A stretch of DNA of 352 bases. It comes from Escherichia coli. GTDB taxonomy: Bacteria; Pseudomonadota; Gammaproteobacteria; Enterobacterales; Enterobacteriaceae. A program made the position numbers and the translations under genes. The notes under the pieces were generated by a model. That model searched no databases, was not told the origin of the DNA, and was given only the letters and a program-made list of their open reading frames with translations. The DNA lies in NCBI RefSeq assembly GCF_003334255.1, contig NZ_QOWU01000256.1, one strand, 5' to 3'. Positions 13 to 352 of this stretch are shown one piece after another (position 1 is the stretch's first letter; every line of letters starts with the position of its first letter).

Positions 13-153
13 CTACTGCTTACACTGTAAGAACGCCGCAAACTCCGCTCCCCACAAATTCAGCCGGAACTCACACAACGAGCCGTGTAACATCCAGATG
101 GTGAAGATTACCGTCATACAAATTGTGACGGTGATGAGCGATTTTTGCGACAT
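13..153 (-). CDS. hok: Hok/Gef-family type I toxin, small inner-membrane protein, 46 aa (HokA-like)
   Basis: Minus-strand ATG at 153..151 and TAG stop at 15..13. An in-frame TAG lies 10 codons upstream (183..181) with no other start between, so the start is unambiguous. AGGAG Shine-Dalgarno (plus 163..167) sits 9 nt upstream of the ATG. Translation: MSQKSLITVTICMTVIFTIWMLHGSLCEFRLNLWGAEFAAFLQCKQ. Short polar N-terminus (MSQK), an ~18-residue hydrophobic segment, then a tail with the SLCE and AAFL.CK motifs characteristic of Hok/Gef proteins. Family assignment is from recalled HokA/HokE sequences, not a database search. Symbol is family-level only; the paralog is not assigned. Confidence 0.85.
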   Translation of the reverse strand: MSQKSLITVTICMTVIFTIWMLHGSLCEFRLNLWGAEFAAFLQCKQ

Positions 154-256
154 AACGCTTGTCTCCTGAGTGGAGAGGCGCTAACCTACTACTTGTGAAG
201 GTTGTACGGTCAGGGCCTCGGGTTAACATTAAAGTTGACTCGGGGCCTTTCCACAT
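71..256 (-). CDS. mok: mok-like overlapping reading frame (61 aa), probable translational-coupling ORF, not an independent protein
   Basis: The ORF from the supplied track (MWKGPESTLMLTRGPDRTTFTSSRLAPLHSGDKRYVAKIAHHRHNL...). It starts 103 nt upstream of the hok ATG, runs across the hok Shine-Dalgarno and start, and ends at TGA 73..71 inside hok in a different frame. This is the arrangement known for mok in plasmid R1 hok/sok. Its His/Arg/Thr-rich sequence has no recognisable fold. Start is uncertain: a GAAGG lies only 4 nt before the ATG at 256, and an alternative in-frame ATG exists at 229..227. Confidence 0.45.
   Translation of the reverse strand: MWKGPESTLMLTRGPDRTTFTSSRLAPLHSGDKRYVAKIAHHRHNLYDGNLHHLDVTRLVV
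159..187 (+). promoter_or_regulatory. Candidate sigma70 promoter for a Sok-like antisense RNA
   Basis: Plus strand: -35-like TTGTCT (159..164), 17-nt spacer (165..181), -10-like TAACCT (182..187) with T at position 1, A at 2 and T at 6. Predicted start around 191..195. The -35 overlaps the hok Shine-Dalgarno region on the opposite strand, as I recall for the Sok promoter in R1. Hexamers are moderate matches only. Confidence 0.4.
163..167 (-). promoter_or_regulatory. Shine-Dalgarno (ribosome-binding site) of hok
   Basis: Minus-strand AGGAG (plus-strand ctcct at 163..167) with a 9-nt spacer to the hok ATG at 153. Confidence 0.6.
194..252 (+). ncRNA. sok: Candidate Sok-like cis-encoded antisense RNA (type I antitoxin), about 57-60 nt
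   Basis: Lies between the candidate promoter (159..187) and a stem-loop plus TTT (214..250). Predicted architecture is a roughly 20-nt unstructured 5' tail (194..213) followed by a single 3' hairpin. It is fully complementary to the mok/hok mRNA from 4 nt downstream of the mok ATG to about 60 nt further on. Size and layout resemble Sok of plasmid R1 (about 64 nt). Ends are approximate. Confidence 0.4.
214..252 (+). terminator. Stem-loop with short U-run; putative intrinsic terminator and structural domain of the antisense RNA
   Basis: Plus-strand 214..227 (GGCCTCGGGTTAAC) pairs with 234..247 (GTTGACTCGGGGCC): 14 bp, 11 Watson-Crick plus 3 G-U wobbles (218/243, 221/240, 224/237), 6-nt loop ATTAAA (228..233), followed by TTTCC (248..252). 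On the minus-strand transcript the three wobbles become A-C mismatches. The U-run is only 3 nt, so termination efficiency is uncertain. Confidence 0.35.
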
Positions 257-306
257 CAGGCCTTCAGGTTCTCCCTCCAGCCATCAGCCGAAAGGCACCC
301 GCGCAT

Positions 307-335
307 AATCTACGATTTTTGCCCTGCACGGGCAA
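307..335 (-). promoter_or_regulatory. Candidate promoter for the mok/hok mRNA
   Basis: Minus strand: -35-like TTGCCC (revcomp of plus 330..335), 17-nt spacer, -10-like TAGATT (revcomp of plus 307..312). Predicted start near plus 300, giving an mRNA beginning GGGUGCCUUUCGGC... about 44 nt upstream of the mok ATG. Weak hexamers; the true promoter could lie beyond the right edge. Confidence 0.3.
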
Positions 336-336
336 C

Positions 337-352
337 AAAAAACCCGCCATCA
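337..352 (-). terminator. Possible 3' arm and T-tract of an intrinsic terminator for an upstream minus-strand gene, truncated by the window edge
   Basis: Minus strand reads ...TGATGGCGGG TTTTTTGTT: a GC-rich segment (plus 343..348) followed by a T6 tract (plus 337..342). The matching 5' arm would lie beyond position 352 and is not visible. Confidence 0.2.

Follow-up and report, generated by a model that had tools for sequence, protein, structure and literature searches.

The closest described relatives of the locus considered here are the hok/mok/sok (parB) module of R1 and the K-12 loci hokC/mokC/sokC and hokB/mokB/sokB. In R1 a GAGG at nucleotides 105-108 precedes the mok AUG (116-118) and the hok AUG (174-176), and translation of the mok frame up to the hok Shine-Dalgarno (SD) sequence is required (PMC9841398). 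Under this hok/mok/sok paradigm the antisense RNA acts on toxin synthesis only indirectly, via the mok frame. Here we analyze a 352-nt stretch of Escherichia coli DNA (contig NZ_QOWU01000256.1; "the window" throughout), which carries most of a hok/Sok-family type I toxin-antitoxin (TA) module; the mRNA continues for ~65 nt beyond its edge, a portion that includes the fbi element. An initial annotation had read a 61-codon open reading frame (ORF) that overlaps hok as mok-like, with its initiation as a possible control point. Having compared the window with its relatives, we consider it probable that the module belongs to the hok/Sok family and lacks a conserved mok frame, that the frame seen here is a lineage-specific by-product, and that control is exerted by RNA folding and an antisense duplex.

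The window shares with the R1 and K-12 loci (i) a Hok/Gef toxin and a leader matched end to end, if below the gathering score, by the Rfam model, (ii) a tac-ucb hairpin, pairing between the mRNA 5' and 3' ends, and a GAGGC paired with a downstream box, (iii) a hok SD held in a hairpin, and (iv) an antisense RNA encoded in cis, which has an unpaired 5' tail ahead of a long hairpin and is transcribed from a promoter overlapping the region of the hok SD. The assignment to a hok/sok-type module stands, supported by the Pfam HOK_GEF match, the leader and these RNA elements. The window differs in leader score (35.8 bits vs 110-118 bits for the K-12 loci), in Hok length (46 aa, vs 52 aa in R1 and ~50 aa in K-12 HokC and HokB) and, unlike R1, hokC and hokB, in having neither a start codon after the GAGG nor a conserved overlapping frame. 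Geometry was judged against the R1 coordinates (PMC9841398) and the curated K-12 annotation. In R1, hokC and hokB the mok AUG stands 7-8 nt past the GAGG, under the 5' tail of Sok; in K-12 the start codon is 8 nt (mokC/sokC) or 10 nt (mokB/sokB) inward of the Sok 5' end. A GAGG occurs at the homologous place in the window, 66 nt before hok (69 nt in R1), and no ATG, GTG or TTG is found 3-13 nt past it, either there or in 57 of 58 relatives. ATG256, the start of the 61-codon frame, lies instead where the antisense RNA has its 3' end, opposite to the canonical arrangement.

To judge whether such a frame is maintained, we used 89 relatives (53 unique sequences) drawn from phage contigs, species-representative genomes and annotated records, found with an alignment of 31 Hok relatives as the query. 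ATG256 is present in 51 of the 53 unique variants, and the ORF that it opens reaches hok, at 61 codons, in only six (eight sequences, the window included); in the other 45 it stops after 1, 8, 10, 15, 17, 19, 21, 22 or 24 codons. The second in-frame ATG, ATG229, occurs in just three variants (the window, L001 and L039), to which the underlying C>T change in the loop of the hairpin is private; others have ACG, CTG or TTG. No ATG, GTG or TTG at all is available in the -1 frame of 32 unique variants (59 sequences). Frame breaks consist of stops and indels of lengths other than multiples of three, which fall within the loop of the hairpin or within a hypervariable stretch (~210..196). Among the copies lacking the frame are the common Stx2a-phage allele (L002 type) and phage Phi24B, in which the conserved ATG opens only 8 codons, compared with 61 in the window; in seven Salmonella variants AAA or AAG replaces ATG256, and no comparable ORF is present. 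An overlapping mok frame is thus not maintained among the relatives, only 6 of 53 running into hok.

Purifying selection on Hok is equally strong whether or not the frame is present. The ratio pN/pS of hok is 0.30 in loci without a -1-frame start and 0.28 in loci with one (pairs not independent), and the toxin is clearly maintained in frame-bearing and frame-less classes alike. The G of ATG256 forms a base pair with C14 of the tac-ucb stem, and this pair covaries (C-G to U-A in Salmonella), so that RNA structure explains the conservation of the triplet. The frame exists in this copy because an ATG kept for its pairing happens to be in register across an indel-prone hypervariable stretch.

The ORF list confirms what had been noted of the frame itself, a 61-codon ORF at 256..71 on the minus strand with a second in-frame ATG at 229..227, and folding places ATG229 at the loop/stem junction of a (weak) sense-strand hairpin, as had been described. 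Among 20,000 dinucleotide shuffles of the leader, 12% yielded a -1-frame ATG ORF that reads into hok and 3.8% yielded one starting at least 60 nt upstream; alone, the 61-codon ORF is mildly unusual and not compelling. Its 61-aa product belongs to no NCBIfam or PHROG family and has no homologue in a collection of 5.8 billion proteins. The openness of the -1 frame inside hok (to +83) was rejected as evidence for mok: it ends at a conserved TGT-GAG junction (Cys27-Glu28) and is also explained by the hydrophobic segment of the toxin, in which few codons are able to form stops. An intact mok-like ORF in a single copy is accordingly weak evidence when it is annotated without comparison to relatives.

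RF01794 matches 300..142 on the minus strand over its full length (35.8 bits, E 1e-6; below the gathering score of 59), and scores 118 and 110 bits on the sense strand of the K-12 hokC and hokB leaders. What the model covers is the leader in sense orientation, between mRNA +1 and the hok AUG, whereas sokC and sokB are annotated on the other strand, and we therefore discarded the match as evidence for the antisense strand; although named "sok antitoxin", RF01794 does not identify that strand (window 142-300, minus; also L098 and L099). The full-length hok mRNA would measure ~365 nt. In the 99.4% identical prophage L001, which supplies the 3' end that the window lacks, the 5' end (GGGUGCC..GGCUG) is base-paired to an element ~365 nt further downstream, CAGCC..GGCACCC (the tac/fbi pairing), and the full-length fold has a minimum free energy (MFE) of -150 kcal/mol (z -5.2). 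Removal of the 3' end made the hok translation initiation region (TIR) more open in 32 of 34 relatives. Compensatory changes occur at 6 of the 30 pairs in a consensus fold of 41 leader variants, three of them in the tac-ucb helix, among these the pair formed by the G of ATG256; in this fold 98.9% of cells are paired, vs 32-54% when partners are slid, and its covariation score was reached by none of 500 shuffles. In the same fold the conserved GAGGC (219..215) pairs with GCCUC (179..175). The hok AGGAG (167..163) lies opposite the anti-SD CUCUCC.

A Sok-like RNA is encoded on the plus strand within the leader, with a start near 194/195, a single-stranded 5' tail and ends that are predicted. Positions 212-249 form a 16-bp hairpin with its loop at 228-233. 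The plus strand of 194-256 folds at -28.6 kcal/mol (z -4.75); in the complementary strand three G.U pairs turn into C.A mismatches, which reduces the stability to -14.2 kcal/mol (z -1.33). From this strand asymmetry it follows that the functional hairpin is that of the antisense RNA. Its lower stem is conserved, with a compensatory G-C to A-U change in Salmonella relatives. If the RNA spans 194..252, as first suggested, its pairing with the 61-codon frame would begin midway through codon 2 and extend through codon 21, essentially the geometry claimed, the 3' end at 252 being a guess. A consensus promoter and terminator scan of the window returned no hits, the antisense promoter included, and so the promoters were placed only by homology and spacing. 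The candidate hok promoter, which matches 8 of 12 consensus positions and falls under the scan threshold, would set the mRNA start (+1) at 300, where the Rfam match begins. The spacing of the antisense promoter presumably agrees with that of the R1 sok promoter. As a separate observation, the antisense -35 is TTGTCT in the window and TTGACT in Phi24B, and on the other strand this position immediately follows the hok SD (GGAGACAAG vs GGAGTCAAG), so that one substitution can affect both antitoxin transcription and the toxin ribosome-binding region.

Independent evidence that such an RNA is made comes from the Shiga toxin (Stx) phage Phi24B. A 20-nt "microRNA-size" RNA termed 24B_1 (TAACGTTAAGTTGACTCGGG; 2223 small-RNA reads) was reported from its "lom-vb_24B_43 region", together with an "80-nt precursor" detected by reverse transcription PCR and a predicted promoter, p24B_1, with -35 TTGACT and -10 CGCTAACCT (PMC4426718, PMC10732415). 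That region aligns with the window throughout. 24B_1 matches L105 (Phi24B) exactly at 293-312 on the minus strand, opposite to lom and antisense to hok; it comprises the loop and 3' arm of the antisense hairpin, and p24B_1 is the antisense promoter (window 159-164 and 182-187). The locus and strand of 24B_1 are those of the window antisense RNA, whose transcription from the place initially proposed is thereby borne out. The antisense RNA of this module is real in a relative, where its hairpin contains 24B_1 and its homologue is the reported 80-nt precursor. The substitution that separates 24B_1 from its counterpart in the window is the very change that creates ATG229. Phi24B also encodes an identical 46-aa Hok, unannotated in record HM208303.

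The 24B_1 papers assign the RNA a regulatory role in trans, with no mention of hok/sok (PMC4426718, PMC10732415), and we found no published link between the two in them or in the wider literature checked. The published 189-nt delta-24B_1 deletion (L105 186-373), for which altered lysogeny and induction were described, takes out the antisense gene together with the promoter, entire leader and SD of hok, and the "overproduction" insert of pUC18_24B1 (L105 74-638), the whole-locus plasmid for which a drop in ATP was described, holds the complete hok/sok module including hok. The ATP-drop and lysogeny phenotypes may involve the toxin module, a link that we regard as speculative. We advance tentatively, as a serious possibility that falls short of a probable one, a wider interpretation in which the lom-adjacent 46-aa Hok subfamily of Stx/lambdoid phages and Salmonella functions without a mok frame and antisense RNA controls hok directly, by duplex cleavage or RNA refolding, 24B_1 is a processing fragment of the Sok-like antitoxin RNA, and the 24B_1 phenotypes reflect, at least in part, loss or multicopy dosage of the entire TA module. 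The mapping of 24B_1 onto an antitoxin RNA changes how its mutant and overexpression phenotypes are read.

From family knowledge and folding, the following scheme of control can be proposed. The minus strand would give the hok mRNA, inactive at full length while its 5' end is paired to its 3' end; 3' trimming would let the 5' end refold as the tac-ucb hairpin (300..242), and Hok would then be translated from its own AGGAG SD. The plus strand would give the short Sok-like RNA (start 194/195, hairpin 212-249), which would pair with the leader and most likely expose the duplex to RNase III cleavage. In the lineage of the window the duplex may also allow the anti-SD to re-pair with the hok SD. Control would not pass through blocked initiation of the mok frame. 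When the antisense was held at leader positions 45-106, the hok SD hairpin closed as in the full-length mRNA and the unpaired probability of the TIR fell from 0.44 (free) to 0.28 (bound); across the window's group the corresponding values are 0.31-0.51 and 0.27-0.35. These foldings point weakly to refolding of the hok SD in the window lineage; as a general mechanism it was rejected, folding favoring it in the window's close group only. A precedent for repression of a toxin without a leader ORF is tisB/istR-1, in which the antisense RNA binds far upstream of the toxin ribosome-binding site. That system has no homology to the module studied here; by analogy, a standby-site mechanism of the same kind is a possibility at this module.

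Several points weigh against this account of a module without a conserved mok frame. The frame is intact in this copy, and a comparable ORF arose in only the 3.8% of shuffles given above. Of the 53 variants, 51 retain both ATG256 and the GAAGG upstream of it. Starting at the overlapping ATG/GTG, an ORF extends to 46-27 nt before hok, or into hok, in about 32 of 36 E. coli-type leaders, and a flexible leader ORF, or use of the 61-codon frame in this copy, may yet contribute. Production of Hok from the frame-less copies is a prediction, and folding gives no support to Sok-induced refolding in the group at 76% identity. Furthermore, the sample consists mostly of phage contigs and its sequences are related, so that neither the counts nor the pN/pS values are independent events.

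Three other explanations were weighed. In the model of the initial annotation the 61-codon frame is a working mok: translation starts at ATG256 or ATG229, read-through opens the hok ribosome-binding site, and the antisense RNA occludes the start. In keeping with it are the intact ORF (p ~0.04), the GAAGG 4 nt before ATG256, the requirement for mok translation in R1 (PMC9841398), and the reach of the antisense RNA, which at the canonical Sok length (57-64 nt) would end a few nucleotides from ATG256 and as the proposed 80-nt transcript would cover it. We nonetheless judge it unlikely, given that the frame is lost in most relatives, copies with an identical Hok among them, and that selection on Hok is equal where it is lost; in addition, ATG256 and the GAAGG are partly paired within a hairpin supported by covariation, they are closely spaced, ATG229 lacks an SD and is confined to this lineage, and the geometry is the opposite of that in the curated mok/Sok pairs. 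Of the initial description, the module, the ORF and the antisense RNA are borne out, and the role proposed for the frame is not supported: it reaches hok in 6 of 53 variants, its second ATG is private, Salmonella has no ATG at the place, and its arrangement is non-canonical.

Less probable again is a leader ORF of flexible length, read from the overlapping ATG/GTG (256..252), in place of mok; its termination 27-46 nt before hok would melt the anti-SD hairpin, and the 61-codon form would be one variant of it. The leader variants counted above (~32 of 36 ending between -46 and -27 or running into hok) agree with this proposal, as does the closure of all three frames just upstream of the anti-SD. 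The ORF is absent, however, from the common L002-type, L055 and L060 alleles, and its start, which is inside the tac-ucb hairpin, is absent from all Salmonella relatives; the antisense -10 and start region, encoded opposite to it, account for the cluster of stops. We find it very improbable that only copies with the frame intact, such as the window, are live TA modules and the rest silenced relics: the K-12 chromosomal hok loci are reported to be inactive, and the frame is intact in a minority of variants that carry three different hypervariable alleles, but frame-less copies keep an intact 46-codon hok under purifying selection and all of the RNA elements, make antisense RNA (Phi24B), and leave an intact-frame share close to that of chance retention. 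On the preferred reading, in which the module has no conserved mok frame, a widespread natural subfamily has retained toxin, antisense RNA and RNA switches without conserving the frame, and so offers a direct test of whether translational coupling is dispensable.

The toxin is assigned to the small hydrophobic Hok/Gef proteins by the Pfam and PHROG matches, and its relatives carry the same annotation; against the NCBIfam HokA model it scores 38.4 bits (cut-off 89). The name hokW/sokW was considered for this locus and rejected, since the published HokW is a different protein. The hokW-sokW locus of Sakai prophage 5 (PMC8621323) is distinct and encodes 51 aa beginning MKQQKAM (primer YO-357), whereas the window Hok has 46 aa, begins MSQKSL and adjoins lom. 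The label "MokW-like" found on relatives traces to PHROG 251, a family of Hok proteins, and a literature search for "mokW" returned nothing relevant. Coordinates of all features are collected in Table 1.

Table 1. Features of the hok/Sok-family module in the 352-nt window (position 1 is the first nucleotide; +, strand as presented; -, its complement).
Feature	Position	Strand	Basis or remark
hok toxin gene, 46 aa and stop	13..153	-	Pfam HOK_GEF (PF01848) E 4.7e-8; PHROG 251 E 2.8e-24
mok-like ORF, 61 codons, ATG start (MWKGPESTLMLTRGPD...)	71..256	-	ORF list; -1 frame relative to hok; overlaps hok
hok mRNA 5' leader	154..300	-	Rfam RF01794 match 300..142, full model
Antisense promoter (predicted): -35 TTGTCT 159-164, 17-nt spacer, -10 TAACCT 182-187	159..187	+	Position of published p24B_1
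Anti-SD GCCUCUCC (179..172), loop, hok SD AGGAG (167..163)	163..179	-	Folds; conserved in alignment A3
Sok-like antisense RNA: ~18-nt single-stranded 5' tail, hairpin 212-249	194..256	+	Predicted 3' end ~250-274
Hypervariable stretch, target of Sok 5' tail	196..210	-	Most frame-breaking indels; alignments, A3 columns 94-108
Conserved GAGGC	215..219	-	Aligned with hokC mok SD (alignment A2); placed like that of R1
24B_1 counterpart, TAACATTAAAGTTGACTCGGG	224..244	+	One substitution and one extra A relative to 24B_1
ATG229, in-frame codon 10, hairpin loop	227..229	-	Lineage-specific
tac-ucb 5' hairpin of processed mRNA	242..300	-	MFE fold, covariation; holds ATG256 and GAAGG
ATG256, GAAGG at 265..261 (4-nt spacer), in ucb arm	254..256	-	
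hok promoter (predicted): -35 TTGCCC 335..330, 17-nt spacer, -10 TAGATT 312..307	307..335	-	
lom terminator, 3' half and T-run	337..352	-	Cut by window edge; only 3' arm and T-run inside

The module is always found directly after lom, here in a lambdoid (Stx-type) prophage, and in L001 the lom terminator is complete (CCCGC-TGTGATG-GCGGG-TTTTTT, immediately 3' of lom). Identity to the window is 99.4% for phage PhiR5_2 and for a prophage in E. coli DETEC-S792, and 90-96% for many Stx-converting phages. Of 5426 complete E. coli genomes, 1750 carry homologues, at up to nine copies per genome, and those of the lom-adjacent 46-aa Hok subfamily are distributed among E. coli, many Stx phages and Salmonella. 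Three further copies (L005, L006 and L008; Hok identity 100% and 74-76%) come from contigs no longer than 4.2 kb whose assemblies bear the labels Xanthomonas pisi, Planococcaceae and Collinsella, and most likely represent contamination or mis-binned enterobacterial phage DNA.

Some Salmonella enterica contigs (L091 1001-1631; L092 1001-1635) contain two tandem copies ~490 bp apart, the hypervariable stretches of which differ. This indel-rich stretch coincides exactly with the pairing site of the antisense 5' tail and is bounded by near-invariant flanks. From its sequence pattern it looks like a site at which antisense-target specificity has diversified among co-resident copies, as many as nine in one genome.

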